From Dehalococcoidia bacterium (lineage in GTDB: Bacteria > Chloroflexota > Dehalococcoidia > Plut-88900), in the NCBI GenBank assembly GCA_965197585.1, contig OZ240215.1:128001-192000 (forward strand): a DNA stretch of 64,000 nucleotides, in the 5' to 3' direction. Below are positions 13,926-64,000 of the stretch, piece by piece. A program made the position numbers and the translations under genes. Under the pieces are notes generated by a model. That model did not search any database. It was not told the origin of the DNA and worked only from the letters and a program-made list of their open reading frames with translations. Numbering within the stretch: position 1 is the stretch's first letter; each line of letters opens with the position of its first letter.

Positions 13926-14776
13926 TAGCTATAAAATTACGGCTTCCGACTATGACTTCCCACATTTGTTACCACCCCATCAGCGCAAATGATTAGTACG
14001 AGTGCACGTTGGTGGCCAAGGGAGACTGTACCAGAACCTTTTAATTCGTTGTAGAGTTGCGAGTTTCCAGTAGTGGAACACCAGATATAGAAAAAGTGGA
14101 GCCTTTGGGATAACACCCTTTACATGGTCGCCCGTAATACTAACTTATTCAGAGAAGCTGCGCAGGGTTCGATTCCACCTAGGTGGGCCTGAGTTGACCG
14201 CAGGCAGTACCACGTTCGAGTTGACGGTGGCGTTCCTGCCCAACCAAGTGGAGACACGAGCCCGAGGGTACAGTTGCGCCGCTGGCCCACCAGCCTTTCG
14301 CTTTGATTGGGTGCCCACCCGAGGCCGGCTCCCAACTCTGTCTAACCCATCCCATGAGGCTCGAACTGCCCATTTGGCTCGTGATGCCGAGGGGGGAGAC
14401 GACGGGTCCCCCTCAAGAACGATAGCAGCCCCCACGAATGGTGTCGTCCGACTACGTGCTGGCCTCAAGTCCACCGCCCACGAGTACCTGAGTATTTCGT
14501 GTCTATTCTGTACCGTGAATGTTCACGGCTGTTTCGCAATAGACATCAAACTCTGCACTACTCCTGGGCAGCAGAACTGAATTCCACTTCGGAAATCTAG
14601 CTGACCGAGGATTCATTTTTTAGTCTTGGCGATTGTTAGTTCGCAAGTTATTGGCATCGGGAAACACATACAGCATTCTTCTCTCCAAGAGAGGTGAAAT
14701 TGGGAGGGGTAATTGCAGACTCACACATGATCATATTGTAGGATAGGCCCTACCAATTCAGGTTTGGAGGAATGCC

Positions 14777-14920
14777 TTGGAAGCGTATTGTGTGAAGTGC
14801 AGGTCCAAGAGGGAGATGAACAACTCCCAGTCCGTTACGATGAAGAATGGGCGCCCGGCCACTCAGGGTGTATGCCCAGTCTGCTCCACAAAGATGTTCC
14901 GGATCGGTAAAGCCGAATAG
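14777..14920 (+). CDS. 47-aa DUF5679-like zinc-ribbon protein (below the ORF-track cutoff)
   Basis: GGAGG RBS, TTG start; EAYCVKCRSKREM...MKNGRPATQGVCPVCSTKMFRIGK; paralog at 60187. Confidence 0.85.
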   Translation: MEAYCVKCRSKREMNNSQSVTMKNGRPATQGVCPVCSTKMFRIGKAE

Positions 14921-15055
14921 TCCGGCAGTCTCCAGCAAGCCAGAGGGTCCTGCTTCAGCAGGTGCCTCTGGCTTCTGGCTTCTCCCTCGGCTACCGGTTG
15001 GCCTGCTCCGTCGGTTCTTGGTGGTTTCCCCCGATGTGGCAGGATAGGATTCCGA

Positions 15056-15108
15056 CTACAAGTTCAGAACACATATCAATGCGAAAGTTCTTGATTTTGT
15101 CCAGTTTG
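15056..15108 (-). repeat. recombination-site-like arm A
   Basis: GAAAGTTCTTGATTTTGTCCAGTTTG (15083-15108) is identical to 40256-40281. Minus strand reads NWTKSRTFALICVLNL*. Confidence 0.75.
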
Positions 15109-15763
15109 TTGAACTGTGTTTGACTGTAGGCATTACCATTTCCGAGTTTCGCCTGAAGCTGTCATGACAAGCAAGTCGCTTGGATACATCGCCACCACCG
15201 CAAATAATCACTCGGAGATTGTCACACAGAATCTAGCTTGAGACCTCCTTCGGATGCAGATTACCTATTCACGTATGCGTCAAACGAGGGTATCTGCGGT
15301 GAGCTCCGCGGCGTAACCAAAGGACACGTGCTGCAACGTCACTTCAGTCACTATCTGTGGCATCCGACATTCCTCTTATTACGTACCCCAAGATAACTAC
15401 ACTCAATACGACAGAACATTACAGGACTTGTAGTAAACAAAGACAGTGTGCTAGCATCCCGCTAGGCCGTGGGCAGGATGCCAGGAGGTGTATGTGGTCT
15501 TCACTTATTTGTCCCTCACCTAATTCCTTGCTGGCCTATCGTTTCCGTGATCTTGCCTCTACTGCCCTAACCTTCTCCCTCCCACTTCCTCCTCGGATGC
15601 ATCACACCGGAAACGCTCCAATTGCTTCAGCGCGATGCAGTTACCGTCCATTGTGACCCGTATTGCTTACCGATACCGAATAGGAGTCTTTTATGTGCCG
15701 TTCTAAGGTCTGCCCATCACAATCCTTGGGGCAGTTGGGGCCGTTGTTTATGAGGAGGATCCA

Positions 15764-18235
15764 GTGAAACAATTCGTGGCTAATCGGAAGGGACCTTGGC
15801 AAAAGCGGCTCCTGTACATCGGGATTCTAAGCATCACGTTGCTGGCCCTGCTGGTATTCGCAACATGCGGTGACGATGATCCAGAAGAAATTCCCGGTAC
15901 GGCTACTTCCGTCGCGGTAGCTCCCACGCCCGAAGCGCCTGGCACTACCCTGAGGCCGAGGAGTGAGTGGACCGAGGAGGCTCCTGCTACCAGGGCCGAG
16001 ATAGAAGCTGAACTGGGGAAGTACAGGGGTAAGAGCATCAGCGTCCTAGACGGCGGCGGCGCTTGGCAAGCCGCCCACCGCAAGGCTTATTACATTCCCT
16101 TCCAGGAGCAGTTCGGCATCGAGATCATCGAGGACACCGCCTCCTCCATCGTCGGCCAGATCCGCGGCATGTCGGAGACCGGCAACATCACCGTGGACAT
16201 CGGTGTCTGGGGCATTGACGTCGCCATCCAGCTTGGCCGCTCGGGCCACGCCGCAGAACTCGACTACTCCGTCATCGACCTGCGAGACCACTTCCCCGAT
16301 CTGGTGGAGGCCGGTAAACCCTACATCGCCGGCGGGGGAGACATTTTCTCCACAGTAGTTGCCTACAGCACCGAGTCCTTCCCCGATTCCGGCCCCCAGC
16401 CCTCCACTATGGCTGACTTCTTCGACTTGGAAGAATTCCCCGGCAAGCGGGGTATGTGGAGCTTCTGGCAGATCAACCCCCACCTCGCCTACATTGCCCA
16501 GCACCCCGAGGTCTTCGATAACCCTGGTGCCCTTGCTTCGCTCTCCAGCCTCACCGACGCCCAGATGGAGGAGGCCTGGACCTACCTCGACGATTTCGTC
16601 GCGAGAGCAGGCAGCGACTTCATCACCTGGGACAGCGGCTCCGACTGCCCAGCCCTCTTGATAGCTGGTGAACTGGATCTCTGCACCACCTGGAACGGTC
16701 GTATCTACGACGCCGTAGTCGCAGACGATGCGCCCATCAACATCTGCTGGGAATGCGGTCACGTCATGGACGCCGACTACTACTTCGTCCCCAACGGGCT
16801 GAAAGAACTTGACGCCGAGAGATGGGAGATGGCCCAACTCTTCCTGGCATGGATGTCCTTCCCGGACATCAACGCCCAGGAGTCCCTGTACATCCCCTAT
16901 GGACCCGTGAACCAGAAGGCCCTGCCACTCCTCGATGACCCGGCCTGGGATCACATCAGGGATGCCCTGCCCACTGCCCCCGACAACGCCCAGTACGGCC
17001 TCTTCCTCGACTCCTCCTGGGCCGGGGCCACCGCAGATGCTGCCCAGGAACGTTGGTCTTCTATCCTGCTGAGACAAGAACAACCTGAAGCACCTGGCAC
17101 GACGCTGAGGCCCAGGAACGAGTGGACCGAAGACGCCCCTGCTACCAGGGCCGAGATCGAGGCCGAGCTAGGCAAGTACAGGGGCAAAAGCATCAGCGTC
17201 CTGGACGGCGGCGGCGCTTGGCAAGCGGCCCACCGCAAGGCCTATTACATCCCCTTCCAGGAAGAATTTGGCATCGAGATCGTCGAGGACACTACATCAT
17301 CCATCGTCGGTCAGATTCGCGGCATGTCCGAGACAGGCAACATCACCGTAGACATAGGGGTATGGGGCATTGACGTTGCAATCCAGCTAGGCCGTTCGGG
17401 CCACGCTGCAGAGCTCGATTACTCCGTCATCGACCTACGAGACCACTTCCCCGATTTGGTAGAGGCTGGTAAACCCTACATCGCCGGTGGCGGAGACATC
17501 TTCTCCACCGTAGTCGCTTACAGCACCGAGTCCTTCCCCGATTCCGGCCCTCAACCCTCCACAATGGCCGACTTTTTCGACCTGGAAGAATTCCCTGGCA
17601 AGCGGGGTATGTGGAGCTTCTGGCAGATCAACCCGCACCTCGCCTACATAGCCCAGCACCCCGAGGTCTTCGAAAACCCTGGTGCCCTTGCTTCGCTCTC
17701 CAGCCTCACCGACGCCCAGATGGAGGAGGCTTGGACCTACCTCGACGACTTCGTATCGAGAGCCGGCAGCGACTTCATCACCTGGGACAGCGGATCCGAC
17801 TGCCCAGCCCTCTTGATAGCCGGTGAATTGGATCTCTGCACCACCTGGAACGGCCGCATCTACGACGCGGTAGTGGCCGACGATGCGCCCATCAACATCT
17901 GCTGGGAGTGCGGCCACGTCATGGACGCCGACTACTACTTCGTCCCCAATGGGCTGAAAGAACTCGATGCAGAGAGATGGGAGATGGCCCAACTCTTCCT
18001 AGCTTGGATGTCCTTCCCGGACGTCAATGCCAGGGAGTCCCTGTACATTCCCTATGGGCCCGTGAACCAGAAGGCCCTGCCACTCCTCGATGACCCGGCC
18101 TGGGATCACATCAGGGATGCCCTGCCCACTGCCCCCGACAACGCCCAGTACGGCCTCTTCCTCGACTCCTCCTGGGCCGGGGCCACCGCAGATGCCGCCC
18201 AGGAACGCTGGTCTACAATCCTACAAACCAGATAA
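15764..18235 (+). CDS. PotD-like ABC substrate-binding lipoprotein with two tandem near-identical SBP domains
   Basis: Lipobox-like VFATC; repeat units 15929-17083 and 17084-18232; GGAWQAA, FFDLEEFPGKRG, WNGRI and YGPVN motifs. Confidence 0.9.
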   Translation: MKQFVANRKGPWQKRLLYIGILSITLLALLVFATCGDDDPEEIPGTATSVAVAPTPEAPGTTLRPRSEWTEEAPATRAEIEAELGKYRGKSISVLDGGGAWQAAHRKAYYIPFQEQFGIEIIEDTASSIVGQIRGMSETGNITVDIGVWGIDVAIQLGRSGHAAELDYSVIDLRDHFPDLVEAGKPYIAGGGDIFSTVVAYSTESFPDSGPQPSTMADFFDLEEFPGKRGMWSFWQINPHLAYIAQHPEVFDNPGALASLSSLTDAQMEEAWTYLDDFVARAGSDFITWDSGSDCPALLIAGELDLCTTWNGRIYDAVVADDAPINICWECGHVMDADYYFVPNGLKELDAERWEMAQLFLAWMSFPDINAQESLYIPYGPVNQKALPLLDDPAWDHIRDALPTAPDNAQYGLFLDSSWAGATADAAQERWSSILLRQEQPEAPGTTLRPRNEWTEDAPATRAEIEAELGKYRGKSISVLDGGGAWQAAHRKAYYIPFQEEFGIEIVEDTTSSIVGQIRGMSETGNITVDIGVWGIDVAIQLGRSGHAAELDYSVIDLRDHFPDLVEAGKPYIAGGGDIFSTVVAYSTESFPDSGPQPSTMADFFDLEEFPGKRGMWSFWQINPHLAYIAQHPEVFENPGALASLSSLTDAQMEEAWTYLDDFVSRAGSDFITWDSGSDCPALLIAGELDLCTTWNGRIYDAVVADDAPINICWECGHVMDADYYFVPNGLKELDAERWEMAQLFLAWMSFPDVNARESLYIPYGPVNQKALPLLDDPAWDHIRDALPTAPDNAQYGLFLDSSWAGATADAAQERWSTILQTR

Positions 18236-21770: not shown

Positions 21771-21795
21771 CCTATGCTCCCGAATCACTGGTTGA

Positions 21796-23480: not shown

Positions 23481-23694
23481 CTAATTTCCGAAGCGGAAGA
23501 GTTTTGCGGCGGTTGAGTATACGAACTTAGTCTGCTCGTCTGCCGGAATATCTTTCAGGATCTCGCCCAGGACCTGCTGGGAACGGGGCCAGGTCGACTC
23601 TCTGTGGGGATAGTCGGAGCCCCACATGATGTTGTCGACGCCAATCAAGTCTCGGTGGGTCATTCCGATGAGGTCCTCGGTGAAGTTTACAAAC
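23481..23694 (-). pseudogene. C-terminal remnant of an amidohydrolase-2 protein, cut by IS30
   Basis: IGVDNIMWGSDYPHRESTWP...TAAKLF; ends at the IS30 terminal repeat. Confidence 0.8.
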
Positions 23695-24684
23695 TGTGGA
23701 TTCACATTTGAAGTGCAACACGCTTTCCAAAAAGATCTCTGGCGGAGTCCTGTAGCCCAGGCACTTGCGCGGGGTATTGTTGTAGGCCTGAATCATCTGC
23801 GTAAACCGCTCCTGGGGCAACGTCGCCAAGTCCGTCTTGCGGGGCAGAGTTCGCCGCAACCGGCCTATAGCGTTCTCCACCCCGCCCTTCTGCCAGGGGG
23901 AGTGGGTATCGCAGAAGAAGGTCTCGATGCCCAGTTCGTGGAGCCGGTAATGGAGTGCAAACTCGGTCCCGTTATCGAAGGTCACCGTCCGGTGCCATTC
24001 AGGCGGCATCTGACCGAGCACCTGCGACATGGCCCCTGCGATGGGCCTGGATGCCTTGCCAGGGGGCCTGAGCGCTATGAGGATGCGGGAATAGCGTTCG
24101 TGCATGGTCAGCACCGCATGTCCATAGGTACTGAACAGCATCAGATCCGCCTCCCAATGCCCGGGAGTGCGGCGGTCAGCAGCACTCTGCGGACGCTCGG
24201 CAATCGGGCGCCGCATAGCCATGAAGGAGGCAGGACTGACCCCTTTGCGCCCTCGCCAGCCCCGCTTCGACTTGGCTCGAGGAAGGTAGTGTCTCCACCC
24301 ATAGTTCTTCTTCCGAGCCATCTGGCCATATATGAATCGGTAGATGCTCTCATGGGAGATGACCCTCTTGCCTGACTCCATCGCCAGCCGACCCGCCACC
24401 TGCTCCGGAGACCAACCCTGCTTGAGCCGACAGAGCACCTGCTCCCGCAGACCCCTGTCCCGCTCCAACCGGGACCCGCTCCATCGCCGGGCATGCGCCT
24501 GTTGGTACGCATACCTGGGCTCGTATCCCTGGGTTCTTGAACCATTGCGCTTCAGATCCCGAGCAACTGTCGATGGCGAGCGATCCAGACTTGCCGCGAT
24601 TTGGCGGACTGAGTATCCCGCGGCTTGTAGTCGGGCCACTTCACATCGCTCTTCAATGGTGACATGTCCATAACTCTTTCCCAT
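23527..24684 (-). CDS. IS30-family transposase (reads through the IS end into flanking DNA)
   Basis: HTH, WSPEQV, GHWEAD, TFDNGTEF, PWQKGGVEN and NNTPRKCLGY motifs. Confidence 0.93.
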   Translation of the reverse strand: MGKSYGHVTIEERCEVARLQAAGYSVRQIAASLDRSPSTVARDLKRNGSRTQGYEPRYAYQQAHARRWSGSRLERDRGLREQVLCRLKQGWSPEQVAGRLAMESGKRVISHESIYRFIYGQMARKKNYGWRHYLPRAKSKRGWRGRKGVSPASFMAMRRPIAERPQSAADRRTPGHWEADLMLFSTYGHAVLTMHERYSRILIALRPPGKASRPIAGAMSQVLGQMPPEWHRTVTFDNGTEFALHYRLHELGIETFFCDTHSPWQKGGVENAIGRLRRTLPRKTDLATLPQERFTQMIQAYNNTPRKCLGYRTPPEIFLESVLHFKCESTVCKLHRGPHRNDPPRLDWRRQHHVGLRLSPQRVDLAPFPAGPGRDPERYSGRRAD

Positions 24685-24728
24685 GACAACACCTTAACCA
24701 AGTGTTGCACTTCGTTTGTGAGTTTAGA
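23695..24728 (-). mobile_element. IS30-family insertion sequence
   Basis: 27-bp imperfect TIRs TGTGGATTCACATTTGAAGTGCAACAC / GTGTTGCACTTCGTTTGTGAGTTTAGA; no target duplication seen. Confidence 0.88.
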
Positions 24729-48507: not shown

Positions 48508-48546
48508 TAATCTCCATAACCTCATAACAATGCCAAGGTCAAGAAA

Positions 48547-52264: not shown

Positions 52265-52293
52265 TTGACATTGAAGCTTGTCTTGTCTAGACT
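52265..52293 (+). promoter_or_regulatory. sigma70-type promoter of bfd-bfr
   Basis: TTGACA-N17-TAGACT. Confidence 0.6.
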
Positions 52294-52338
52294 ACCGACA
52301 ATCTGTGCATAGCCTATAGCAATGAGGAAGCCCCCACT

Positions 52339-52584
52339 ATGTTACTATGTGTGTGCAAAGGCATAAGGGTCTCTGAGGCAGTCGATGCGGCCAGATCGGG
52401 CAACAGGTCACCTGCGTCATTAATCAACAGGTTTGGGCTCGAAGACGATGATTGTTGCGGCAGGTGTGCGAGTGACATCGTCCGGCTGACCAGCCTTGTG
52501 AACGGGGAACTCGCCAGAGCAGATGCGAGGCACAGCTCCGTCCAGTATAATAGCCCCAGGGTACCTGCTACCGTCTCGATCTAG
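52339..52584 (+). CDS. bfd: bacterioferritin-associated ferredoxin
   Basis: CVC...CCGRC (2Fe-2S) pattern; directly upstream of bfr. Confidence 0.85.
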   Translation: MLLCVCKGIRVSEAVDAARSGNRSPASLINRFGLEDDDCCGRCASDIVRLTSLVNGELARADARHSSVQYNSPRVPATVSI

Positions 52585-52599
52585 TAGAGGAAGGCACAT

Positions 52600-53076
52600 T
52601 TGAGGGCTAAAGAAGGCGTAGTTGAACGCCTGAATAACATACTGACGATTGACCTGACGGCCATAAACCAGTACTTCATCCATTCGGAGATGTGCAAGAA
52701 CTGGGGTTTTAACCGGATGGCCCACAGCCTCCGGTCCAACAGCTTCGAGGAGATGAAGGATGCCCAGAACCTGATCCAACACGTCCTCTATCTGGAGGGA
52801 ATCCCTAACCTGCAAAGGCTCAATCAGGTAAAAGTTGGGGAGTCGGTCCTGGAGGACCTACAGCTGGATCTTCAGTCGGAGAAAGAGGCGGTTGAGATCC
52901 TAACGGAAGCGATCACACACTGCGTACGGGTGGAAGACTATACGACCCGAGGCCTGCTCGAAGGGATGGTGCGCTCAGAGGAAGAGCACATCGACTGGCT
53001 TGAGACCCAGTTGGAAACCATAAATACCATAGGACTGGAACTGTACCTCAACCAGCAGATCCACGAAGACGACTGA
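52600..53076 (+). CDS. bfr: bacterioferritin
   Basis: AINQYFIH, EEMK, LEG-x-PNLQ and EEEHIDWLETQ motifs. Confidence 0.95.
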   Translation: MRAKEGVVERLNNILTIDLTAINQYFIHSEMCKNWGFNRMAHSLRSNSFEEMKDAQNLIQHVLYLEGIPNLQRLNQVKVGESVLEDLQLDLQSEKEAVEILTEAITHCVRVEDYTTRGLLEGMVRSEEEHIDWLETQLETINTIGLELYLNQQIHEDD

Positions 53077-53471
53077 CAAGCCTGCCCCAACATTAGTGTC
53101 ACAATCTTAGGTTACCGTTAGCGCTCGAGCCATTGTTGCTCGGGCGCTGGTTTTTGGCCTCTACTCACCCAGTTTACTGAGAAACTCGGCATTTATCCTC
53201 TTTACATCTTTACGGAACCGGCAAAGAGGATTCGTATGGGAAAACCCAAAATCACTGTGGAAAACGTGCGTAGCAACGTGGAACGCACCGGAGGGGACCC
53301 TGCTATAAGCCAGTACGTCTGATTTATTGGTCCTGGTTGGCTTATTGAATGGAAGAGGGTTTAGCGTGTGACTCGGGCTCCCTTGATATTCTGCGAAATC
53401 AACCATAAACATTCGCTAGAAAACAAGACCTATACAATTCCAGTCGAAGCTGGACAGAACCGACGCAGCGT

Positions 53472-53583
53472 TCACAGCGCAAGTCTATACCTAAGTAAAA
53501 GAGTTCTCGATTTTGTCAAGTTTGTTGGCCCCAACCGCATAAATGACAGAACCTTTTCGGTGAGGTTCAGGATAGGCCTTCAG
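53472..53583. repeat. double (inverted) recombination-site-like arm C
   Basis: Left arm on minus reads RTLLLRYRLAL*; right arm on plus reads GPNRINDRTFSVRFRIGL(CAG). Confidence 0.7.
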
Positions 53584-54162
53584 TGGTCGGAGCATATATT
53601 CCGCCAAGTGAGTCGAATCCACGTTGGTGGACTATATGATCCCGTACTGTGGGTGTTGTCCTTGAATGTGTCGCTCTGGGTGGACACGCCAGACTCTTTA
53701 GATTGTTCGGCATGCCTGAGGCTTCACCTTCTCAGTCCTTGAGTTCATTGGACTTCTGGACCGCCATCCCCCCGCAGTCCCGAGGCATCACACCAATTGC
53801 GAGGTCAAATCGGATATTCTATAGATCTGCACGATTGGCCTGCAATGTCCACCTGGGCCTGTCGGATAGATTCGATCAATCCTAGGTATCAGGCTCTGGT
53901 TAATGGCATCAACCGGAAGAGACGCTTACGCCCCCTCTACCCTGTAACCTTTCCATAACTATCCATATATCCGGACTCGCACCCCATCCCGAGGCTTGAG
54001 TGATACTGCCTAGTCTTTGAGACTACTCGTACCCTTAATGGTCTTTTCATCCCCCACAACGAACGCGGAGGACCTCGCCACTTTTGCACGCCTCTTCCAT
54101 CTCGGGGTGCTATATCCCCGTAATTGCCCTCGAACGACTTAAATTTGTTGGGCAATTAACTG

Positions 54163-54266
54163 TTGACACTTAACAAAAGTTAGTCTAATCTGCCTTCCGC
54201 GATTAGGTTAGGCCACCCTAAATATTGTTATGTGTAAGCCAGAATATATGGGTTAGTCTTACCTAG
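54163..54266 (+). promoter_or_regulatory. promoter with DtxR/IdeR-type iron boxes
   Basis: TTGACA(54163)-N17-TAATCT; TTAGGTTAGGCCACCCTAA 54203-54221; ATGGGTTAGTCTTACCTAG 54248-54266. Confidence 0.75.
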
Positions 54267-54685
54267 CTGTGGCACTTGTCACGATATAGTTCATTAGAGT
54301 GGCAATCCTAAGCTAATATAGGATCCTCAACAATGTCGGCTTGAGAAACGGTAACTAATGCCCCCCACTCACTTGCCAATTACTCTCTTGGCTATACTCG
54401 CAGATTTGCGCTACGTCAGCTGCAGATCCGATCCACCTCCAACTTCTCCCTCACCGACCACCGCCCCGCCTCTCCCCACTCCAACCAAACCCTTGAATTC
54501 CGCTACCACAGAGGCTCTCGCTCAGAATCCAACCTCTAGCCCTGTTCCCGCATTTCGGTTTGCATGAAATTCGGCTTGCTCCCACATTATGGAGGCGAAG
54601 ATGTAATTGTAGGCGCGAAGCAAGACCAACGAAAGGTGTCCTTGAAGGAGTCCCGGATATACAAAAGAAGATTAGGAGGAAAAGT

Positions 54686-55837
54686 ATGCTCAGAATGGCA
54701 TTAGTGTTGCTGGTCATATCCGCCTTGGCCTTCGCCATGGCCTGCGGCGGGGGCGGAGCCAGCGACGACCTTAAGACCCAGGTAGTCGACAATTATGCCG
54801 CGGGTGCCCACGCGTCTTATGCCCGAAGCCTCGCTTCCGCAAGAGCGATGGATTCCGCCATTGATAGCTTCCTAGCTGCCCCGTCCCAGCACCGTCTGGA
54901 TGCCGCCAAGTACGCCTGGCTACTGGGCCGCGACGACTACGGAGTCACCGAGATTTACCGCTTCTACGATGGCCCAATCGACAACGAAGAGGACGGCCCT
55001 GAGGGCCTCATCAATGCCTGGCCTCTGGACGAGTCCTACATAGACTACGTCGAAGGCGCCCCGAGCGCCGGCATCATAAACAACCCCGAGGAATTCCCGA
55101 CCATCGACGCTGATTTGCTGGTATCTCTTAACGAGGTAGGCGGTGAAGAGAACGTCTCTACCGGTTGGCACGCCATCGAGTTCCTGCTGTGGGGTCAGGA
55201 CCTCAACGCCGACGGCCCCGGCTACCGCCCGGTTGAAGACTACACGGTCAATGAGAACGCAGACCGCAGGGCTGCCTACCTTCGCGTGGCTTCAGACGTC
55301 CTGCTGGGCCACATGCAGGACATGGTCGACGCCTGGGCCCCGGGCGAGGGCAACTACCGCGCGCAGTTCGTGTCCAAGGACTCCGACGAGGCTATAACGG
55401 ACATAATCACCGGTATCGGAGAGATGAGCCGGGGTGAACTTGCGGGCGAGCGCATGACCGTAGCTTACGAGGAGAGGTCGCAGGAAGATGAGCATTCCTG
55501 CTTCTCCGACAATACCACCGCCGACATCATTGCCAACGCAGTCGGCGTCCAGCGGGTCTACTTCGGAGACTACGGCGACGTTAGCGGCCCCGGCATCATG
55601 GACCTGATCGCCGCCGAGGACGAGGCTCTCGCCGAGACCCTGGCAAACGAGATCAACCGTTCCGTCGCATTGGCAAGGTCTATTCCTATTCCTTTCGACA
55701 GACACCTTGCCGAGGGCCTCGCGGACTCCGACCAGGGGCGCAAGGCGGTGCTTGCAACAATTGAAGCTCTGGAAGACCAGACCGATACGATTGTCCAGGC
55801 AGCCGAGAACGTTGGCATTACCATCAGCGTAAGCTGA
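54686..55837 (+). CDS. imelysin-like (peptidase M75/IrpA) iron-regulated lipoprotein
   Basis: AGGAGG RBS, AMAC lipobox, INAWPLDE, GWHAIEFLLWGQD, ELAGER and EDEHSCFSDNT motifs. Confidence 0.92.
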   Translation: MLRMALVLLVISALAFAMACGGGGASDDLKTQVVDNYAAGAHASYARSLASARAMDSAIDSFLAAPSQHRLDAAKYAWLLGRDDYGVTEIYRFYDGPIDNEEDGPEGLINAWPLDESYIDYVEGAPSAGIINNPEEFPTIDADLLVSLNEVGGEENVSTGWHAIEFLLWGQDLNADGPGYRPVEDYTVNENADRRAAYLRVASDVLLGHMQDMVDAWAPGEGNYRAQFVSKDSDEAITDIITGIGEMSRGELAGERMTVAYEERSQEDEHSCFSDNTTADIIANAVGVQRVYFGDYGDVSGPGIMDLIAAEDEALAETLANEINRSVALARSIPIPFDRHLAEGLADSDQGRKAVLATIEALEDQTDTIVQAAENVGITISVS

Positions 55838-55843
55838 TTTAGC

Positions 55844-57265
55844 ATGCACCATTCCGGGTTGGTGATTAGGTTGTGGTCACGGCCGCTGACAGCAGTGCTT
55901 CTCGTGGTCGTGATCACAACTGCCATCGCCTGTGGGCAGGATGAATCGGACGTTGATCTGGATGAGGTCTACAACGTCCTTCTCGGCGGAGAGACCACTG
56001 CCTTCAGTGCCGGTACGAACGCCTTCGAACTCTCCGCCCGAAACCTGACCAACGAGCTCCGACGCACCTTTGAAGTGGGCGACAGCTTCTTTAATCAGAA
56101 TTGGGTTGCCGCGCCCGCAAGCACCGTGGCCCGGGACGGTCTCGGCCCCACCCACAACGCCCTGTCCTGCTCCTCCTGCCACAGCCACGACGGTCGTGGC
56201 AAACCACCTGATGGCCCCGACGACCCGGAACGGGGCCTCCTCATCAGGCTGAGCATCCCGGGCCCCGACGGTCCCATAGACGATCCTGTATACGGAGGCC
56301 AGTTGCAGGACAGGGCTATTCTCCTCGTGCCACCCGAGGGTCGCGTGCTAATCACGTACGAAGAAATGCCGGGAACGTATCCGGACGGCACGGAATACAG
56401 CCTCAGACTTCCAGTCTATACTTTCGAGGGCCTTGCCTTCGGCCCATTGCATTCTGAGATCATGACCTCGCCGAGGGTGGCGCCCGCCGTCATAGGAATG
56501 GGGCTCCTGGAGGCCATCCCGGAAGAGGACATACTTGCGCTCTCTGATCCCGACGACGCCGATGAGGACGGCATTTCCGGACGCCCGAATAACGTTTGGG
56601 ACATCCGCCGCGGCGAGAAGGTGGTCGGCCGTTTCGGTTGGAAAGCGGGACAACCTACTGCAGAGCAGCAGGCTGCCGGTGCATTCTTGGGAGACATAGG
56701 AATAACTTCCACACTATTCCCAGACGATAACTGCCCGACTGTCCAAGAAGCATGTCTGGCTGCACCCGATGGCGGCGAACCGGAGATCCCCGACGAACGT
56801 CTGCAAAAGGTTGCAGTTTACCTCCAGACCCTGGCCGTTCCGGCCATGCGCAACACGGAGGATGAGACGGTTCAGCAGGGCGCCACGCTATTCGTACGCT
56901 CCCAGTGTGCCGCATGCCATACCACTCGCTACGAGACCGGAGATACGCACCCCGTCGAGCCGCTCCGCAGCCAGGTCATATTTCCCTTCACAGACCTCCT
57001 ATTGCACGACATGGGCTCCGGCCTAGCAGATAACCGGCCCGAGGCTGATGCAACCGGTAGCGAATGGCGTACACCCCCCCTGTGGGGTATCGGATTGGTC
57101 GAGACTGTAAACGGGCATACAATGTTTCTGCACGACGGCCGCGCCCGAAGCTTGGAAGAGGCCATCCTCTGGCACGACGGCGAGGCAGCCGGGTCCCGTG
57201 ACCTCTTCATGAGCCTGACCGCAGAAGAACGTGAAGCGCTCATCAAGTTCCTGGAGTCACTGTAA
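55844..57265 (+). CDS. di-heme oxidoreductase (DHOR) family lipoprotein
   Basis: DGLGP, CSSCH, GRFGWKA, CAACH, WRTPPLWG and LHDGRAR motifs. Confidence 0.92.
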   Translation: MHHSGLVIRLWSRPLTAVLLVVVITTAIACGQDESDVDLDEVYNVLLGGETTAFSAGTNAFELSARNLTNELRRTFEVGDSFFNQNWVAAPASTVARDGLGPTHNALSCSSCHSHDGRGKPPDGPDDPERGLLIRLSIPGPDGPIDDPVYGGQLQDRAILLVPPEGRVLITYEEMPGTYPDGTEYSLRLPVYTFEGLAFGPLHSEIMTSPRVAPAVIGMGLLEAIPEEDILALSDPDDADEDGISGRPNNVWDIRRGEKVVGRFGWKAGQPTAEQQAAGAFLGDIGITSTLFPDDNCPTVQEACLAAPDGGEPEIPDERLQKVAVYLQTLAVPAMRNTEDETVQQGATLFVRSQCAACHTTRYETGDTHPVEPLRSQVIFPFTDLLLHDMGSGLADNRPEADATGSEWRTPPLWGIGLVETVNGHTMFLHDGRARSLEEAILWHDGEAAGSRDLFMSLTAEEREALIKFLESL

Positions 57266-58351
57266 GTGCGGTACAAACTGAGCAAGATATTCCCGGTATC
57301 GATTGTCATCGTCCTTCTAGTTGTGGCGTGCGGTTCGGGTGGCCCTTCCGACAAGGACGTGATGATAAGTCTCACGGATAACGTAGTGATTCCCGCCTAT
57401 GAAACAGTTGCTGAGGATGCTTCCCAGCTGGACCGAGACGTACAGACCCTGTGCGGTGCTCCAGATGATGGATCATTGCGGGCTGCCCGGGAGTCCTGGC
57501 GCAAAGCAGTAAGGTCCTGGAGTTACTCTGAGGCGATGTGGTTCGGGCCCGTAATGGACCGGCGGTCGCTGCGACTTCTCGACTGGTCCCCTACCGACAC
57601 CGCCGCTATCGATGAACTCCTCGCCAAAAGATCATCTATCTCCATTGATGAGGTCAGGGAGGTGCTGGCTTCCAACCAGCGCGGGTTCGGGGCTATCGAA
57701 TACGCATTATTCGACAACCTTGCCTTGCCGAATCTCAGCGGTTCCCCCATTTATTGTGCTTATCTAACTGCCCTGACCCTGGTTGTGCAACAGGAGACTG
57801 CAGCCATTCTTTCCGATTGGGCGACCGGGTCTGATCGCGCTCCATACAAGGACTACTTTACCGACCGCGCCGATATCACCCTTGTTCCCAGTGACGCCGT
57901 AGCAGAGGTAATTCGTACTCAAGTCTTTCTAATTCGCAGCATGGTGGACATGCGGTTGGCCTCGGCCCTGGGCCTCCGGGACACCTCCCCCGACCTGACG
58001 GCCATTCCCGGAAACGCCGCCGACAACGGTCTGCAAGACCTCCGCAACGAGATCCTCGGAATGCAGGCCGTATACGAGGGGGTGGGGCAGGATAAATTGG
58101 GTATTTCAGCCCTTGTTGCCCATCTATCCGAAGATACCGATACTCGGATGCGAGGCCAGTTCACCGCTGCCATTGAAGCTATAGACTCAGTGGAGGGCTC
58201 GCTTCGACAGACCCTCTCCAAAAACCCCACGCGTATCCGTGCTGTCTACGACCGCCTGTCCGATGTCCAGCGTACCATTTCCACTGAAGTAGTCAGCTTG
58301 CTTGGCGTCTCCGTCGGTGTCAGTGAATCCGACGGAGACAGCCTGCGCTAG
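57266..58351 (+). CDS. second imelysin-like lipoprotein
   Basis: VVAC lipobox, FGP, RGFGAIEYALF and C-terminal SDGD. Confidence 0.85.
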   Translation: MRYKLSKIFPVSIVIVLLVVACGSGGPSDKDVMISLTDNVVIPAYETVAEDASQLDRDVQTLCGAPDDGSLRAARESWRKAVRSWSYSEAMWFGPVMDRRSLRLLDWSPTDTAAIDELLAKRSSISIDEVREVLASNQRGFGAIEYALFDNLALPNLSGSPIYCAYLTALTLVVQQETAAILSDWATGSDRAPYKDYFTDRADITLVPSDAVAEVIRTQVFLIRSMVDMRLASALGLRDTSPDLTAIPGNAADNGLQDLRNEILGMQAVYEGVGQDKLGISALVAHLSEDTDTRMRGQFTAAIEAIDSVEGSLRQTLSKNPTRIRAVYDRLSDVQRTISTEVVSLLGVSVGVSESDGDSLR

Positions 58352-58360
58352 AACGCCTCA

Positions 58361-59806
58361 ATGTCTTTCTTAGGCAGTGTCGGTGCGCACCATGTAGGCA
58401 CAGTACGCCCGAGGATTGGCGCCTGGGGCTTGGCCGACAAAGTGATCCGTGCCGGGTCTGAGCCCGTCTCCCCTGCATCGGCGGCCATCTTTCGTATCAT
58501 ACTCGGTGTTGTTGGTGTTTTTGCAGTCTTACGGATCGCCGCCAAAGGCTGGATCTCGGAACTGTACATAGAGCCTGCCCACCACTTTAGCTACTACGGT
58601 TTCGGCTGGATCCAACCTTGGCCCGGGTGGGGTATGTACCTCCACTTTGCCCTTCTCGGACTGGCGAGTCTCGGTGTGGCCCTGGGCTACCGCTACCGGC
58701 TGTCGATAACCGCTTTCTTCCTTCTCTTCACCTATATCGAGTTGATCGATAAGACCACTTACCTGAATCACTATTATTTCATTAGCCTGGCCAGTTTCAT
58801 CATGATTTTCTTGCCCCTTCATCGCGCCTTTTCTTTGGATGCCCGGATAGGGACGGAGAACGAAAGACCGTCGATTATCCCCGGGGCAACTCTCTGGATG
58901 CTCAGGGCGCAGGTCGGTGTAGTCTACTTCTTCGCGGGCGTTGCCAAGCTGAATCCCGATTGGCTTTTCCACGCCGAGCCCCTCGGTATCTGGCTTTACA
59001 ACAGCTCCGACACTGTACTTATCGGCCCGTTCCTCAGGGAGTCGTGGGTCGCCTATGGTATGAGTTGGGCCGGGGCCTTCTTTGACTTGACCGTAGTCGG
59101 CTGGCTCTTGTGGTCCAAGTCTCGTCCTTTCGCCTACGCTGTCCTCATATTATTCCACCTTTTGACGGCACTCATATTCCCTACCATTGGCGTATTCCCC
59201 TTGATAATGACCGGGTCTGCCTTAATTTTCTTCAGTCCTGACTGGCCTGTTCGATTGGTCAGACGTTTACGTTCTCTTCCGGATGAGCCAGGAACCCCCG
59301 GTCATCTCACAGCAACCGGCGCGCGGACAGTCTCCTGGCTGGCCCGAGCGGCCCTCCTCCTCGCTGTTGTCTTTTTCACAGTCCAGGTCGCCATTCCTCT
59401 GCGACATTTTGCTTACCCCGGCAACGTCCGATGGACCGAGGAGGGTTATCGCTTCTCTTGGAGGGTGCTCGTTACCGAAAAGACGGGGTTGGTCAAGTTC
59501 CGAGTTACCCCGGAGGGTGCTGGGGAAGAATGGTTCGTCTACCCGGAGCAATACTTGACGCCTCTTCAAGTCGAGCGGATGGCCTACCAGCCGGACATGA
59601 TACTGGCCACCGCCCACATCATTCGAGACGGCTACGGCTATAAGGGGTACGAAGGCGTTGAAGTCCGTGCCGACGCCTTCGTCACGTACAACAGACGTCC
59701 TTCAACCCGCCTGATAGATCCGAACGCCAATCTGGCCAGCGTAGAAGCAGGTATTGGGCCCAAGCGTTGGATTCTTCCCCCTCCAAACGGGCCGCCCCTA
59801 AACTAG
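58361..59806 (+). CDS. HTTM-domain / vitamin K-dependent gamma-carboxylase-like membrane protein
   Basis: FRI-x-x-G, YLNHYY, SLDAR, YFFAGVAKLNPDW, RFSWRV and LIDP motifs. Confidence 0.88.
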   Translation: MSFLGSVGAHHVGTVRPRIGAWGLADKVIRAGSEPVSPASAAIFRIILGVVGVFAVLRIAAKGWISELYIEPAHHFSYYGFGWIQPWPGWGMYLHFALLGLASLGVALGYRYRLSITAFFLLFTYIELIDKTTYLNHYYFISLASFIMIFLPLHRAFSLDARIGTENERPSIIPGATLWMLRAQVGVVYFFAGVAKLNPDWLFHAEPLGIWLYNSSDTVLIGPFLRESWVAYGMSWAGAFFDLTVVGWLLWSKSRPFAYAVLILFHLLTALIFPTIGVFPLIMTGSALIFFSPDWPVRLVRRLRSLPDEPGTPGHLTATGARTVSWLARAALLLAVVFFTVQVAIPLRHFAYPGNVRWTEEGYRFSWRVLVTEKTGLVKFRVTPEGAGEEWFVYPEQYLTPLQVERMAYQPDMILATAHIIRDGYGYKGYEGVEVRADAFVTYNRRPSTRLIDPNANLASVEAGIGPKRWILPPPNGPPLN

Positions 59807-59954
59807 TGTTCGGATATTCTGCCTCGGCTGACGAGGCTGCGCCCAAAGAGAAATGGCCAAGTCAGACTATCCTTCACTCTCTATCCAATAGCGCTCTTTG
59901 CCGCTCTCGATCGGAGCTGCCTGGCAAATCTTCACGCCGGTTACGCAATAAGCA

Positions 59955-60515
59955 CCAAACTCTGCACTACTCCTGGGCAACAGAACTGAACTCCCCTTCG
60001 GAGAGCTAGCTGACCGAGGGTTCACTTCTTAAGCCTTGGCGAATGCTAGTTCGAAGGTTGTAGGCATGCGGAGATACATACAGCATCTTTCTCTCAAAGA
60101 GAGGTGAGATTGAGAGGGGTAATCGCAGACTCACGCATGATCATATTGTAGGATAGGCCCTGCCAATTTAAGCTCGGAGGAATCCCATGGAAGCGTATTG
60201 TGTGAAGTGCCGGTCCAAGAGGGAGATGAGTAGCCAACAGGCCATTACGATGAAGAATGGGCGCCCGGCCACACGGGGTGTCTGCCCAGTCTGCTCCACA
60301 AGGATGTTCCGGATTGGCAAAACCGCATAGTCCAGCGGTCTGCAACTGACGAGATATATCCGCTTTAGCAGGGACCTCTTGCTACTATCTGAGCTACCGG
60401 TTGTCCTGCTCAGTCGGTTCTTGGTGGGTTTCGCACGACGTGGGAGGACAGGAGTTTGACTACAGGTCCAGCACGAACCTCAAGGAGAAGGTTATCCAAT
60501 TCGTCCAGTTGTTGG
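59955..60515 (+). repeat. duplicated block, copy 2 (leader + DUF5679-like gene + arm D)
   Basis: Collinear with 14545-15110; arm D on minus reads NWTNWITFSLRFVLDL* (stop 60460-60462). Confidence 0.85.
60187..60330 (+). CDS. 47-aa DUF5679-like zinc-ribbon protein
   Basis: GGAGG RBS; MEAYCVKCRSKREM...KNGRPATRGVCPVCSTRMFRIGK. Confidence 0.87.
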   Translation: MEAYCVKCRSKREMSSQQAITMKNGRPATRGVCPVCSTRMFRIGKTA

Positions 60516-60524
60516 CCTCTTTGA

Positions 60525-61734: not shown

Positions 61735-61850
61735 CTACACACTAAGCACAAAACTCAGCGTGAAAGTTCTCTATTTTCCTCAGGGGTTTTGGGCCTAATT
61801 GGAGAGTAGCCAGTACCGCCTTCGAGGTGTGGTTCGCCTTGCCGGGCTAG
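61735..61850. repeat. double recombination-site-like arm E
   Basis: Minus reads RTFTLSFVLSV*; plus reads GPNWRVASTAFEVWFALPG*. Confidence 0.65.
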
Positions 61851-62011
61851 CCACGTCTTGTAGCTGCCCGGTCGAGAGAACGTCCTGCCACAATGGCATG
61901 TGCCGGCGACAACTACGCCGTTGCTAGAACGAAAATCTCCGTCCCGGGCCCCGGGCCGTCCGCATTGCCGTTAAGCCAGTCGCCCAGTTTTAAGGATAAA
62001 GACCTGGTGCA

Positions 62012-63505
62012 TTACTTTTCCTCCCTCTCCCAACCAGAACTCAATCTCTTGGCATCAATGCAACCGGGGAGCCCCGCTTTCTCGAGGCGATCGCTAACAC
62101 GCTCGCCCAACCAGCGAGTTTCTTCGGCCCAAATGCGGTGCTCCCCGTCGACATCTCGTATCAGGACTCTAGCTGTTCCATGAGGGTCTACCACGATCTT
62201 TGCGGCGGACTGGCTTTTCGCCGGGATTTTCAAAGTAATCTCGACTAGACTTTCTTCGCTAATCGATATCGTCTCTATCGGATCGTTGAATGCTGCACAC
62301 AGTTGGCGAATTACCGGCTCCGAATGCCAGCCGGCCGCTGCTATTTCCACATTCTGGTCATGACCGTCACCACGTCTTTCGATTGCATCTCGCACCGCGC
62401 CCTGCAGTGCTGTCACACCTGAATACTCAGTTGTGAGTTCATCTAAATTGCCAGGTGGGTCATCGGCAGCGTACGGATGAGGTGAGTAGCGAGGCGAACT
62501 AGGCTCTCGAATGGGCAACAGCGACGTAAACTTCCGCGGGAGTGGATCTTCCGGCTCCGTAGATACGACTTGTGGAATAACCTGGGCGGGTTAGCCTCGG
62601 AGATGCCCTCTCATAGTTCCAAGCAGGGCAGGCGAGGCGGCTAGGTCCACAGTCTCTTCCTCATCAGGAGGCTCTTCTTCCGCAAGGACCGCAAATCGGT
62701 ATTCCCGCTGATCCTTGTACTTGATGTCTTTTACAAATATGGACTTCATCACGAACTGGAGGTCAGACGGAGAGTTGGCGATTACTCGATACGGGTCCTC
62801 AGAATAGACGACGGGGCCGTGATAAACAATTTGTTGCTTGTGGATGGTGCGGATCTTGTGTTCACCATTAAATGTATGTGTCATTTCATCTTCTTTGCCT
62901 CGTGGCCCAAGCTGCTCAGCCACCATCGAAGCTAGAGCGAGAGCAAACTCTCGTGGACGATAAATGTACGAGACATGATCATAGTCAGACTGCATAGACC
63001 TCCACCATGCCGATTCCTCGTTATCATCTCGCGGCTCCAAGGAAGCGCAGGACATCCACCCGTACTTATGGAAAGATAGCCACCTTCTATTTGTGTGCGT
63101 TCTCTTTGTACTATTGGTGGTTATCGAATCCTTCAAGCCCAAGAGTCTTGCTGCCTTGTTAATTTCGTCATTGAGGACGCGTTTCCCAGTTAGATGACGT
63201 GGGTCGTTGACGATCACGACTTCCGGCTGGGTATGTGTTGCGTATCCTTCTCCGCAATCCCGAATGAGCCCTTCTCCATATTCCCAGAAACGCGATGGCT
63301 TGGAAATGCGAACCTTCTTGAGAAGGTCAATGGCATGTTCCTTACGGCACCCTTTGGCCAAGACTGTCACTGGGATGAGGTCTTCTGAAGCGCGGAGATC
63401 AACGTACATTGTCGAAATGAGGTTGCCGAAACTGTCGATATGTAATCCTTCATTCAGTAGAAAAGGTCTAGTCATATGTCGCTCCAGTTGAATCATTGAG
63501 TTCAT
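62012..63505 (-). CDS. hypothetical protein in two same-frame ORFs separated by one TAA (possible pseudogene)
   Basis: 62591-63505 and 62012-62590 are in frame; K-x-x-x-Y-x-x-Q-x-EYR motif in the upstream part. Confidence 0.55.
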
Positions 63506-63824
63506 TGTACATTCCTTGCCATCTAGCTTTCAGTCGTTGTTTCTACGGAGGAATGACCGGCTTGTGCTTCTTCAGCATGTCTGGCTCCAAGCCCCTAGTC
63601 TGCACTTGGCTCAGCCGGACCCGAGGGCGACAACCCTACCGCAACGGGCAGTCGATCTACAGGACTGCTCGTGGGTAGGGCATAGACGGCTCACTCTTCC
63701 CGAGCGCCTACAGCACAGCGCAACCGGGAATCCGGTAGGGCCTTGTAGGGGCGTACATGTGTACGCCCCTACAAGGCCCACCAGCCTGAATTCGAACCAC
63801 CGACCTTACTATCCGCTCCGACGG

Positions 63825-64000
63825 CTAAAGGGCTAGACCAGAACTCATAGAAAAGGTTCTGCCTTTAATACGGTCGGGGTCACCTGCCCGGATTCGAAAC
63901 GAAAAGAACGCCTCGCCATTTATGGCAACGTTGCCTAGATTGACACAACCCGTCGAAAGGTTCTCTCTGCCGTACCGTTTGGCATGCCGACGGGCAGGAA
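63825..64000. repeat. recombination-site-like arms F and G
   Basis: Minus reads RTFSMSSGLAL* (63860-63825) and RTFRRVVSI* (63964-63935); G matches RTFRWVVSI* at 27005-27034. Confidence 0.6.

Follow-up and report, generated by a model that had tools for sequence, protein, structure and literature searches.

Probable attachment half-sites of large serine recombinases in an island mosaic of an uncultured Dehalococcoidia genome

The window, a stretch of 64,000 nucleotides from an uncultured Dehalococcoidia genome, carries a real family of short arms that are probably half-sites of large serine recombinase (LSR) attachment sites on Dehalococcoidia mobile islands, now decayed and accreted relics. 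The window is best read as decayed, accreted LSR islands like the ssrA islands of Dehalococcoides. On this reading, serine recombinase islands would have left behind a 50-kb mosaic of accessory metabolism genes (for transport of peptides and iron, amidohydrolases and ferritin). The mosaic is of a known kind, and is neither a new integron-like system nor a new class of gene capture. What the sequences show directly is the identity of arms with LSR gene ends, the adjacency of arms to tRNAs, and exact breakpoints of homology.

A repeat search of the window recovered a 55-nt direct repeat family at 15057, 40230, 53473, 60461 and 61736 (100, 82, 64, 67 and 62% identity to the reference copy, respectively). 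The 26 identical nucleotides described in an earlier note on this DNA were found again at 15083-15108 and 40256-40281. These five plus-strand arms share one orientation across 49 kb and none of them is accompanied by an LSR; in the window as a whole, arms are found on both strands. An nhmmer profile built from 44 arms, all of other genomes and none of the genome itself, matched the window at 40249-40287 (E = 2.9e-5), 53491-53531 (E = 2.5e-3) and 15079-15107 (E = 0.018). Only these three of about 11 reported arms reached E < 0.05. Positions 53542-53565 (minus strand), 60478-60517, 63846-63878 and 63954-63982 gave E values of 2.2 to 7.3 only, and the arms at 14033, 27005, 61762 and 61812 had no match to this profile. 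Of the reported arms, those at 60487, 61762, 61812, 63852 and 63956 are degenerate or statistically weak. A degenerate 29-mer (at most two mismatches) was present in 10 of 41 related genomes, and its reversed control pattern had no match in any of the 41. The 10-mer GTCCAGTTTG alone occurred at chance level (5 seen versus 3.45 expected).

In 79 of 80 related LSR loci of Dehalococcoidia MAGs, the 3′ end of the LSR ORF encodes VLDF(V/I). These codons form the arm GTTCTTGATTTCGTCMAGTC; next comes the core CRGCCCACCA, which resembles the 3′ end of a tRNA. In nucleotide form, the ORF end reads GTTCTTGATTT(C/T)GTCMAGTC before the core. The reading of the arms as LSR att-type half-sites is supported, and the earlier note's rule for Chloroflexota LSR genes, an ending of VL-x-x-V-x-x-GG that overlaps the att site, was borne out. 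The proteins of these loci carry Resolvase, Recombinase and Zn_ribbon_recom domains and are highly conserved (83-100% identity over the 80 loci). Their family is found widely on Dehalococcoidia mobile islands and reaches 37 copies in one genome. They are only distantly similar to LSRs of solved structure (E = 3e-9 to the TP901-1 N-domain and 4e-5 to SPbeta YokA). Among 30 loci of the genus, the ORF terminus is SVLDFV(Q/K)S for at least ten LSRs and a VxSTV-type motif for six. V-x-S-T-V with G-rich or tRNA-derived residues after it is the ending of further LSRs of the genus and of three of the four in the genome itself (VLSTVKNGGP in L024; VLSTV, VMSTV and VLSTV in the genome itself), at the same 20-nt distance to a tRNA CCA end. 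The spacing GTTCT-15 nt-TGG is common to the window arms and to those LSR ends of the genome itself that continue into tRNA-Glu(ctc) and tRNA-Glu(ttc). Tail-to-tail LSR pairs on one palindromic site were seen at 25 of 79 loci, and for 13 of 79 LSR ends the simple model proposed here does not explain how they are oriented towards the T-loop-like sequence that they face. The physical link between arm and LSR gene is present in relatives and absent inside the window. As the earlier note had stated, the window contains no LSR gene; all four LSR genes of the genome are located elsewhere, and none of them has the VLDFV end. With neither an LSR gene in the window nor a VLDFV-type LSR in the genome, there is no sign of activity here.

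We propose that a complete site would be an imperfect palindrome of ~51 bp, composed of GTTCT, 15 nt, a core of ~11 nt containing GCCCACCA, 15 nt and AGAAC. One arm would be the last codons of the LSR gene (VLDFVQ or VxSTV), and the other would mirror it at the opposite end of the element. The core would be the 3′ end of tRNAs ending in CCACCA, several of which would be targets. Because the core equals the tRNA 3′ end, we infer a crossover position within the last ~8 nt of the tRNA, which would be rebuilt upon integration. One end would then read tRNA-core-mirror arm and the other LSR end-core-flank. In the order of accretion that we infer, later elements would enter at the same core and push older ones outward, and the junctions would become back-to-back arms. 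The outer GTTC motif may be the contact of the zinc-ribbon domain, and we suggest that the GTTC of the tRNA T-loop may play the same role ~6 bp closer in on the tRNA side. In the window, plus-strand arms would be the LSR-distal ends of islands to their left, and minus-strand arms the relics of LSR-proximal ends whose LSR genes have been lost, with sites decayed to differing degrees. In one case, a pseudo-site that resembles a tRNA end, within a FecCD gene, would have received an island end.

In all four G006 loci examined, an arm of the window type lies 15.5-19 kb from the LSR end and faces outward. The in-frame ORF upstream of the arm is at most 37 codons long for 12 of 14 arms of the genome itself, so the arms are not gene ends themselves. 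Arms adjoin Val-tac, Val-cac and Lys-ctt tRNAs in relatives (3 of 11 non-self loci) and 6 of the 49 tRNAs of the genome itself. In G008 an arm adjoins tRNA-Val(tac), whereas the orthologous tRNA of G000 lacks one. In relatives and in the genome itself, arms lie against real tRNA 3′ ends or back-to-back with another arm. No tRNA or tmRNA gene lies within the window, so the array has no anchor there, and a tRNA model search for putative relics beside the arms (13850-14100 and 63700-64000) found no Rfam tRNA match.

The left-most arm of the window (14010-14051, minus strand) reads GTTCTGGTACAGTCTCCC followed by TTGGCCACCA, a VxSTV-like arm with core. It was matched at E = 0.12 by a profile of the genome's own arms and has a homologous copy at genome position 2224672; the sequence to its left is not an arm. 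To its right is a 590-nt repeat unit (14518-15111, plus strand) consisting of a leader, an ORF for a DUF5679 zinc ribbon (14777-14917; Pfam E = 8.3e-19) and a terminal type-1 arm (15057-15111, plus strand), which reads KVLDFVQF and has a decayed core (TGTTGA for TGGTGG). Further copies of the unit are found at 59927-60515, at genome position 216881-217462, and in G002 and G005, making at least five. Their homology stops at 15106-15111 and 60511-60514, i.e. at the arm cores. The block of SBP and amidase genes that is also present in G002, G003 and G005 begins ~600 nt away from the arm, at 15737, with no homology break at the core.

A transposase ORF with HTH_38 and rve domains (23527-24684, minus strand) belongs to a 1,034-bp multi-copy IS (23695-24728) that interrupts the array. 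A P4-type tyrosine integrase (25454-26635, minus strand; Pfam Arm-DNA-bind_3, Phage_int_M and Phage_integrase), whose paralogues adjoin tRNA-Ser and tRNA-Arg genes, is part of another integration system within the mosaic. By comparison with tRNA-Ser 3′ ends, positions 26751-26769 (minus strand) are a 19-nt copy of such an end and a putative att repeat of a tyrosine integrase island. The copy lies ~24 nt inside the left edge (26727) of a module that G002 shares. The earlier note had overlooked this integrase, the tRNA-Ser-type att copy and two IS elements, all of which are part of the mosaic. A type-3 arm (26985-27036, minus strand; GTTCGCAGTACAATAC) reads VRSTI and lies where a multi-copy repeat of 290 nt (26749-27036) ends on its inner side. 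Within the arm, 27006-27033 is a 28-nt inverted repeat of 63936-63963 (86%) and resembles an arm sub-type found in other places.

The cargo at 26771-40229 is of low GC (52.2%), encodes an SDR, a dpp-type ABC transporter and amidohydrolases, and is bounded on its right by the best-preserved type-1 arm (40230-40285, plus strand), which ends in TGGTGG and has no mismatch to the degenerate 29-mer. This arm is an exact homology breakpoint against a genome of the same genus. The module 26727-40285 is 97% identical in G002, compared with 91-94% in the rest of the shared DNA. Both of its flanks differ there, and it stops exactly at TGGTGG (40285). Its left edge is the tRNA-Ser-type repeat of the tyrosine integrase and not an LSR arm. 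The earlier note was also right that an arm cuts a permease gene. The FecCD gene (40186-41067, minus strand) covers Pfam positions 3-250 of 311 and is intact in G001. The break falls between G and GTGGGG, and homology to intact orthologues starts at 40282, so that the true coding part begins at ~40282. The missing 3′ part of FecCD was not found elsewhere in the genome, where only a 77% paralogue matched.

A second low-GC insert (51976-54952; 51.1% GC) contains a ferritin gene and two back-to-back arms, namely a type-1 arm (53473-53527, plus strand) reading KRVLDFVKFVG and a facing arm (53528-53575, minus strand) reading NLTEKVLSFMRLGP (E = 1.3e-4 with the own-genome profile and 2.2 with the independent one). 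The pair at 53473-53575, with GTTCT, ~41 nt and AGAAC, is an imperfect palindrome of ~51 bp, in line with the imperfect inverted repeat of ~40-50 bp around a short core that marks an LSR attachment site; this shape is expected at a two-element junction or an attP. The native-GC blocks on either side (41972-51975 and 54953-59793) are contiguous in G008, which is without 51975-54953 and has no arm at the junction. The 53.5-kb site therefore does not separate independently acquired blocks. The earlier note's placement of arms at the edges of functional blocks holds at 40285 (against G002 and G001) and at the ends of the 590-nt repeat, and does not hold at 53.5 kb. Of its inverted forms, that at 53548 is part of the palindrome, and that at 27005 is supported by the inverted repeat and by the sub-type likeness. 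Its second back-to-back pair, at 61.8 kb, would combine a decayed arm (61736-61790, plus strand) with a doubtful facing arm at 61811-61830. A decayed type-1 arm (60461-60515, plus strand; E = 3.3 with the independent profile) ends the second 590-nt copy. The last two arms (63826-63985, plus strand; AAAGGTTCTGCCTTTAATACGG and GAAAGGTTCTCTCTGCC; E = 6-7 with the independent profile) form a separate, KVLPxIRSG-like sub-type at 63852 and 63956 and resemble those found downstream of the genome's LSR at 299.4 kb.

The GC content of arm-bearing segments is 51-53%, below the first percentile (55.1%) of the 10-kb windows of the genome. The arms are placed in or at the edges of low-GC inserts, beside the P4-type tyrosine integrase and two IS elements, and IS and tyrosine integrase insertions intervene between arms. 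In the contigs from three runs, neither a joint at any arm nor an alternative or circular junction turned up, which is uninformative on recombination.

It seems rather unlikely that there is a class-wide LSR exchange network for which the arms still serve as competent, interchangeable half-sites. Every pair of P-type arms flanking a GCCCACCA core would then be a substrate, and LSRs brought in by other elements might excise LSR-less modules such as 26.7-40.3 kb, move them between genomes and re-insert them at any tRNA ending in CCACCA or at look-alikes inside genes; the frequent tail-to-tail LSR pairs might be the engine of a two-recombinase system, and the T-loop GTTC the built-in zinc-ribbon motif of a generic attB. 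We give little credence to the integron analogue of the earlier note, a working cassette system in which LSR-less, arm-bounded modules would be excised, captured and reordered by an LSR acting in trans, encoded at another place of the genome or brought along by incoming elements. The common orientation of the plus-strand arms would suit it, as would the 13.6-kb LSR-less module, whose flanks in G000 differ from those in G002 and whose identity exceeds that of other shared DNA, while G002 (87% complete) has no LSR match at all. Cis-mobilisable islands without an integration module are also accepted for Dehalococcoides ssrA islands in the account of PMC3146451. However, elements of relatives normally carry their own LSR, and the genome has no cognate, VLDFV-type one. 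Decay is seen in two cores (15107 and 60505) and in the arm at 61762, the modules of 1-13 kb are multi-gene and on both strands, the 13.6-kb module has a tyrosine integrase att copy as its left edge, and the native-GC blocks around 53.5 kb are contiguous in G008.

It is quite improbable that the arms are decayed 3′ stumps of dead LSR genes, i.e. pseudogene debris without a site function of its own, although they read in frame like LSR C-termini (KVLDFVQFGG) and a gene-less relic of an LSR end exists at tRNA-Ala(cgc). Conservation of the plus-strand arms starts at one point, ~30 nt before GTTCT, and this part upstream of GTTCT is unlike LSR coding sequence; moreover, the four G006 loci have the arms facing outward at the LSR-distal end, and the polarity of the core beside the arms is opposite to that of the core at LSR ends. 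A repeat of REP/MITE or regulatory type that has nothing to do with site-specific recombination (a terminator, a promoter or a signal for tRNA processing) is very improbable, since, although the arms are short, palindromic, intergenic and multi-copy, can form hairpins when facing and end a 590-nt unit of at least five copies, they match no Rfam family, are absent from 43 of 49 tRNAs, are the coding end of 79 of 80 LSR genes and break homology at the core.

The reading as LSR half-sites on accreted islands has its closest parallel in the same class of bacteria. As described in PMC3146451 (McMurdie et al. 2011), the ssrA islands of Dehalococcoides mccartyi lie in tandem downstream of a tRNA-like gene end with repeated att sequences and carry the gene of a serine recombinase, DsiB, at the island edge; some are without an integration module and are discussed as cis-mobilisable and joined by accretion. 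The likeness is drawn on island layout. That system, in the same account, has one target (tmRNA), a 20-bp direct repeat, T-loop insertion and a helper small recombinase, DsiA, and the concept of ICE/IME accretion is cited there as well. Here, in contrast, several tRNAs ending in CCACCA would be targets, the shared sequence is only ~6-8 nt long, the final codons of the LSR itself make up the arm, and the window has neither an anchoring tRNA/tmRNA nor a serine recombinase. In the model of the A118/LI integrase presented in PMC3783163 (Rutherford et al. 2013), the site is pseudo-palindromic and of ~50 bp, with 25-bp half-sites and an outer zinc-ribbon motif that is 5 bp closer to the centre in attB than in attP. 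The architecture found here fits that pseudo-palindromic attP, which argues for the LSR half-site reading, and hybrid sites after integration by phage-type LSRs are likewise without long direct repeats in that account. Unlike in phage-type LSRs, attP here overlaps the stop region of the integrase, two-P-arm sites are common in chromosomes, and the system is known from sequence alone.

Integrons are likewise arrays of gene units between imperfect palindromic recombination sites; they have the tyrosine recombinase IntI, attI and Pc, and mostly single promoterless cassettes in one orientation with folded single-stranded attC. None of these features (IntI, attI, Pc, single-ORF cassettes, attC) is present in the window, and an integron was rejected, as the only integrase there is P4-type with an arm-binding domain, modules of 1-13 kb are multi-gene and on both strands, and arms occur on both strands. 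In ICE/IME accretion, integrase-less att-flanked elements arise by decay and form tandem arrays with later arrivals. The described cis-mobilisable cases concern tyrosine integrases and Streptococcus, and mobilisation was shown experimentally there, whereas here it would be a prediction from sequence. Staphylococcal SCC elements target rlmH (orfX), not tRNAs, by the recombinases CcrAB or CcrC, in an unrelated phylum and with an unrelated site sequence. As in the islands discussed here, Ccr (LSR-family) elements of SCC composite islands (10.1101/336396) pile up in tandem at the 3′ end of one gene, and ccr-less pseudo-SCC members lie between repeated att sequences.

The att sites are readable directly from the 3′ end of the LSR gene itself, and GTTCT, 15 nt, a GCCCACCA-type core, 15 nt and AGAAC form a signature for mapping islands and their ages in MAGs. 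This could be of use to LSR miners seeking integration tools and to students of gene flow in Chloroflexota. Full palindromic sites are also found at 460.6 kb and 324.06 kb of the genome, and in relatives.

The window (G000:C1:128001-192000) lies in a single 3.43-Mb contig of this genome (G000) and has a GC content of 55.8%, compared with 59.3% for the contig. A repeat search grouped five 55-nt copies in the window, at 15057, 40230, 53473, 60461 and 61736 (100, 82, 64, 67 and 62% identity to the reference, respectively), which include five of the sites that an earlier note had read as half-sites (arms) of a large serine recombinase (LSR) attachment site. The best arm is a perfect match on the + strand at 40230-40285, and the reported 26-nt identity between 15083-15108 and 40256-40281 was exact. 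The 10-mer used in that note was, by itself, not above chance (5 matches vs 3.45 expected). An independent profile trained on 44 arms, all from other genomes, detected the arms at 40249-40287 (E = 2.9e-5), 53491-53531 (E = 2.5e-3) and 15079-15107 (E = 0.018), gave E-values of 2.2-7.3 for four further window arms and missed four listed arms altogether. A profile built from the five window copies revealed more copies genome-wide. The arm family is certainly real; for about half of its listed members the evidence is weaker and comes from context. Overall, the earlier note's observation is confirmed in part. The arms at 60487 and 61762 are decayed, and the supposed arm at 61812 is doubtful. Those at 63852 and 63956 belong to a different sub-type, which recurs downstream of the genome's LSR at 299 kb. 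Just upstream of these last arms is a perfect 20-nt inverted repeat with a 2-nt loop (63738-63779; GGGCCTTGTAGGGGCGTACA and its complement).

The arms terminate in TGGTGG, the reverse complement of the ...CCACCA end of tRNAs, and their in-frame reading gives KVLDFVQFGG-like peptides. Four LSR genes were found in the genome, none of them within the window. Three of the four have C-termini of VLSTV or VMSTV; of these, two continue into tRNA-Glu genes and one passes through a tRNA-like fragment. The three gene ends and the arms share a common spacing, namely GTTCT or GTTAT, 15 nt, and TGG or CGG. Among same-genus relatives, the sister genome G006 showed 37 LSR (PF07508) matches and 12 arm 29-mers, and G004 and G007 showed neither, as if LSR elements had multiplied in a burst within a single lineage. 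The LSR ORFs of G006 end in ...ESASVLDFVQS, and the DNA there consists, in this order, of the window arm, CAGCCCACCA and a second arm in reversed orientation. One G006-type LSR, compared with a species-representative genome collection, matched 80 loci (83-100% identity) in records titled "Dehalococcoidia bacterium" or "Chloroflexi bacterium". These proteins carry Resolvase, Recombinase and Zn_ribbon_recom domains, and the VLDFV-type LSRs have only distant similarity to solved LSRs. In 79 of the 80 loci the ORF ended with VLDF[VI] followed by CRGCCCACCA. Therefore, the rule on Chloroflexota LSR gene ends given in the earlier note was verified; arm plus core (the tRNA-3'-end-like stretch) makes up the ORF end in these loci. 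The note's reading of the arms as LSR attachment sites is supported. On sequence grounds, the window arms are copies of LSR gene ends and not gene ends themselves. An arm as the C-terminus of a long gene was ruled out, because the upstream in-frame ORF was at most 37 codons in 12 of 14 arms; the two exceptions were a weak match at 496820 (72 codons) and the LSR at 299.5 kb.

The class-wide LSR family and the tail-to-tail LSR pairs sharing one site are the most interesting side results. A second, convergent open frame of at least 300 codons was present at 25 of the 79 VLDFV-type loci (e.g. L063, L075 and L082), ending in ...ALNGSVLSTVKFGG, which reads ...VLSTVKFGG. In these pairs, each LSR gene end supplies one arm of a shared palindromic site. 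Another 10 VLDFV-type loci (set L063-L142) retain a relic of the second end, and G006:C5:1961-1963 kb is another example of tail-to-tail LSR frames. The pairs may represent two elements that accreted at a tRNA, or else a unit with two recombinases.

At LSR ends, the arm adjoins the ...GCCCACCA side of the core, and in the window arms it adjoins the TGGTGG side. At one LSR locus (L111), the same arm type flanks both sides of the core, as would be expected for attP. In all four G006 loci examined, a window-type arm faces outward at 15.5-19 kb from the LSR end. Taken together, core polarity, L111 and the outward-facing arms suggest an element whose order in the tRNA sense would be tRNA, core, (mirror arm, cargo, LSR gene with the arm as its end), core and flank, the mirror arm being the window-type half-site at the LSR-distal end. 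On the mirror side the sequences cease to be conserved directly after TGGTGG, and on the LSR side after CCACCA, which would place the exchange point within the shared GCCCACCA. In PMC3783163, attP is modelled as pseudo-palindromic with 25-bp half-sites, a model that the present site fits. Counted from the centre, the outer GTTC of the arms is at 22-25 bp and the tRNA T-loop GTTC at 16-19 bp. According to the same paper, the zinc-ribbon motif of attB is shifted 5 bp inward; judging from the counts, the closer T-loop GTTC may resemble this shift.

Two arms of the genome lie head-on at tRNA 3' ends, namely those of tRNA-Ile(gat) and tRNA-Lys(ttt). Several observations agree with the proposed form of the element. 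Of the 49 tRNAs in G000, 6 have an arm or an LSR end next to them with this common spacing. In relatives, window-type arms directly adjoin tRNA-Val(tac), tRNA-Val(cac) and tRNA-Lys(ctt) at 3 of 11 non-self loci, and stand back-to-back with another arm at 3 more. At the orthologous tRNA-Val(tac), an arm is present in G008 and absent in G000. The tRNA-Lys(ttt) region is collinear through the arm in G002 and G005, and synteny is broken at the tRNA 3' end in G001, G004, G006, G007 and G008, a pattern consistent with this 3' end being a hot spot. No clean empty site was found there among the relatives compared, and no tRNA 3'-end direct repeats of at least 14 nt bordered LSR elements for Glu-ctc, Glu-ttc, Lys-ttt or Ile-gat.

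The arm at 40230-40285 closes a 13.6-kb module (26727-40285; GC 52.2%) encoding an SDR, a dpp-type ABC transporter and amidohydrolases. The relative G002 shares this module at 97% identity, and the match stops exactly at TGGTGG, beyond which the genomes differ. Other shared DNA is 91-94% identical; this higher identity of the module suggests that it was transferred fairly recently. Its left edge is a 19-nt copy of a tRNA-Ser 3' end beside a P4-type tyrosine integrase (25454-26769, both included), and 240 nt further into the module there is a minus-strand arm of a different sub-type. P4-type tyrosine integrases with 71-82% DNA identity also adjoin the four tRNA-Ser genes (genome 261.9, 446.8, 828.3 and 2209.1 kb), and constitute a second, independent island-integration system. 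In one ABC permease of the module (BPD_transp_1; 29507-31555), an inserted large BNR/PSII_BNR repeat domain separates the N-terminal segment from the permease core, an unusual fusion.

At the right edge, an arm had been said to cut a permease gene, and indeed the arm at 40285 is joined to a FecCD gene lacking its last ~60 profile positions. FecCD is intact in the relative G001, and the break point falls between G and GTGGGG. The missing 3' part was discarded as a marker of the far end of the array, since a search of the genome matched only a 77% paralogue (1.887 Mb). The gene after the intact fec operon of G001 matches genome 3173057-3173583 in G000 (88%), 2.7 kb from a tRNA-Ile with an inverted arm (genome 3170.4-3173.6 kb). 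This hints at a larger rearrangement linking 40282 and genome 3.173 Mb, possibly a large inversion or translocation with two arms as its end points, in which fecCD' and fecE were lost.

Among described systems, the tandem ssrA genomic islands of Dehalococcoides come closest, their edge carrying a serine recombinase; some of these islands lack integration modules, and the authors discuss them as cis-mobilisable elements joined by accretion (PMC3146451). For Dehalococcoidia serine recombinases and tRNA, the journals covered yielded only this paper and one D. mccartyi preprint, and no description of this tRNA-end-targeting LSR family was found in them. SCC composite islands and ICE/CIME accretion are functional parallels. 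The integron analogue proposed in the earlier note is unsupported; the comparison fails on every defining integron feature testable here. tRNA relics, suggested visually beside the arms at 13850-14100 and 63700-64000, are also unsupported because no tRNA model matched there at E up to 10. Within the window there were no tRNA genes and no Rfam families at gathering thresholds. An ECF-sigma or sigma-70 promoter was set aside, as the aligned copies showed, by eye, no conserved -10 element on either strand. There were no signs of present-day recombination, the genome having no VLDFV-type LSR and its cores and arms being partly decayed. No joints at arms were seen in 44001-64000 in contigs from 3 public runs of one study, such contigs being blind to rare circles; one contig is unbroken across 48362-55192.

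The remaining window is a mosaic, and two IS elements interrupt the region. A 590-nt unit that contains a DUF5679 zinc-ribbon ORF and ends in an arm is present at 14518-15111 and 59927-60515; in all copies, G002 and G005 included, homology is lost at the arm core. DUF5679 as a constant arm partner was ruled out, no such ORF being found in four G006 element loci. The ~260-nt leader upstream of the 47-aa DUF5679 ORF (14518-14776 and 59927-60190) is ~86% identical between copies, with the ORF also conserved; it had no Rfam match and could be a cis-regulatory RNA. A full back-to-back site (53473-53575) lies inside a 2,977-bp insert (GC 51.1%) with a ferritin gene. G008, although syntenic here in other respects, lacks the insert and has no arm at the junction. 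The flanking fec-glycosylation and imelysin blocks (GC 58.2-58.3%, native-like) are contiguous in G008 and are not separate cassettes. An operon at 54560-59806 encodes imelysin, di-haem oxidoreductase (DHOR) and imelysin, followed by an HTTM/vitamin-K-dependent-carboxylase-like protein; of the 9 genus genomes, just G000 and G008 have the imelysin-DHOR-imelysin operon. An 823-aa ORF (15764-18235) has two SBP_bac_8 stretches and a 1,155-nt tandem duplication (15929-16228 vs 17084-17383, 86%), and is either a fusion of two solute-binding genes or the product of a stop or start that was missed. A 1,060-aa protein (43958-47140) fuses LPG_synthase_TM, a sulfatase/phosphodiesterase-type domain and a family-2 glycosyltransferase. 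Finally, 2870-3260 contains coding repeats rich in proline (CCNCCN, with 9- and 18-nt periods) that lie in overlapping ORFs on both strands (2583-3545, +; 2693-3310, -).
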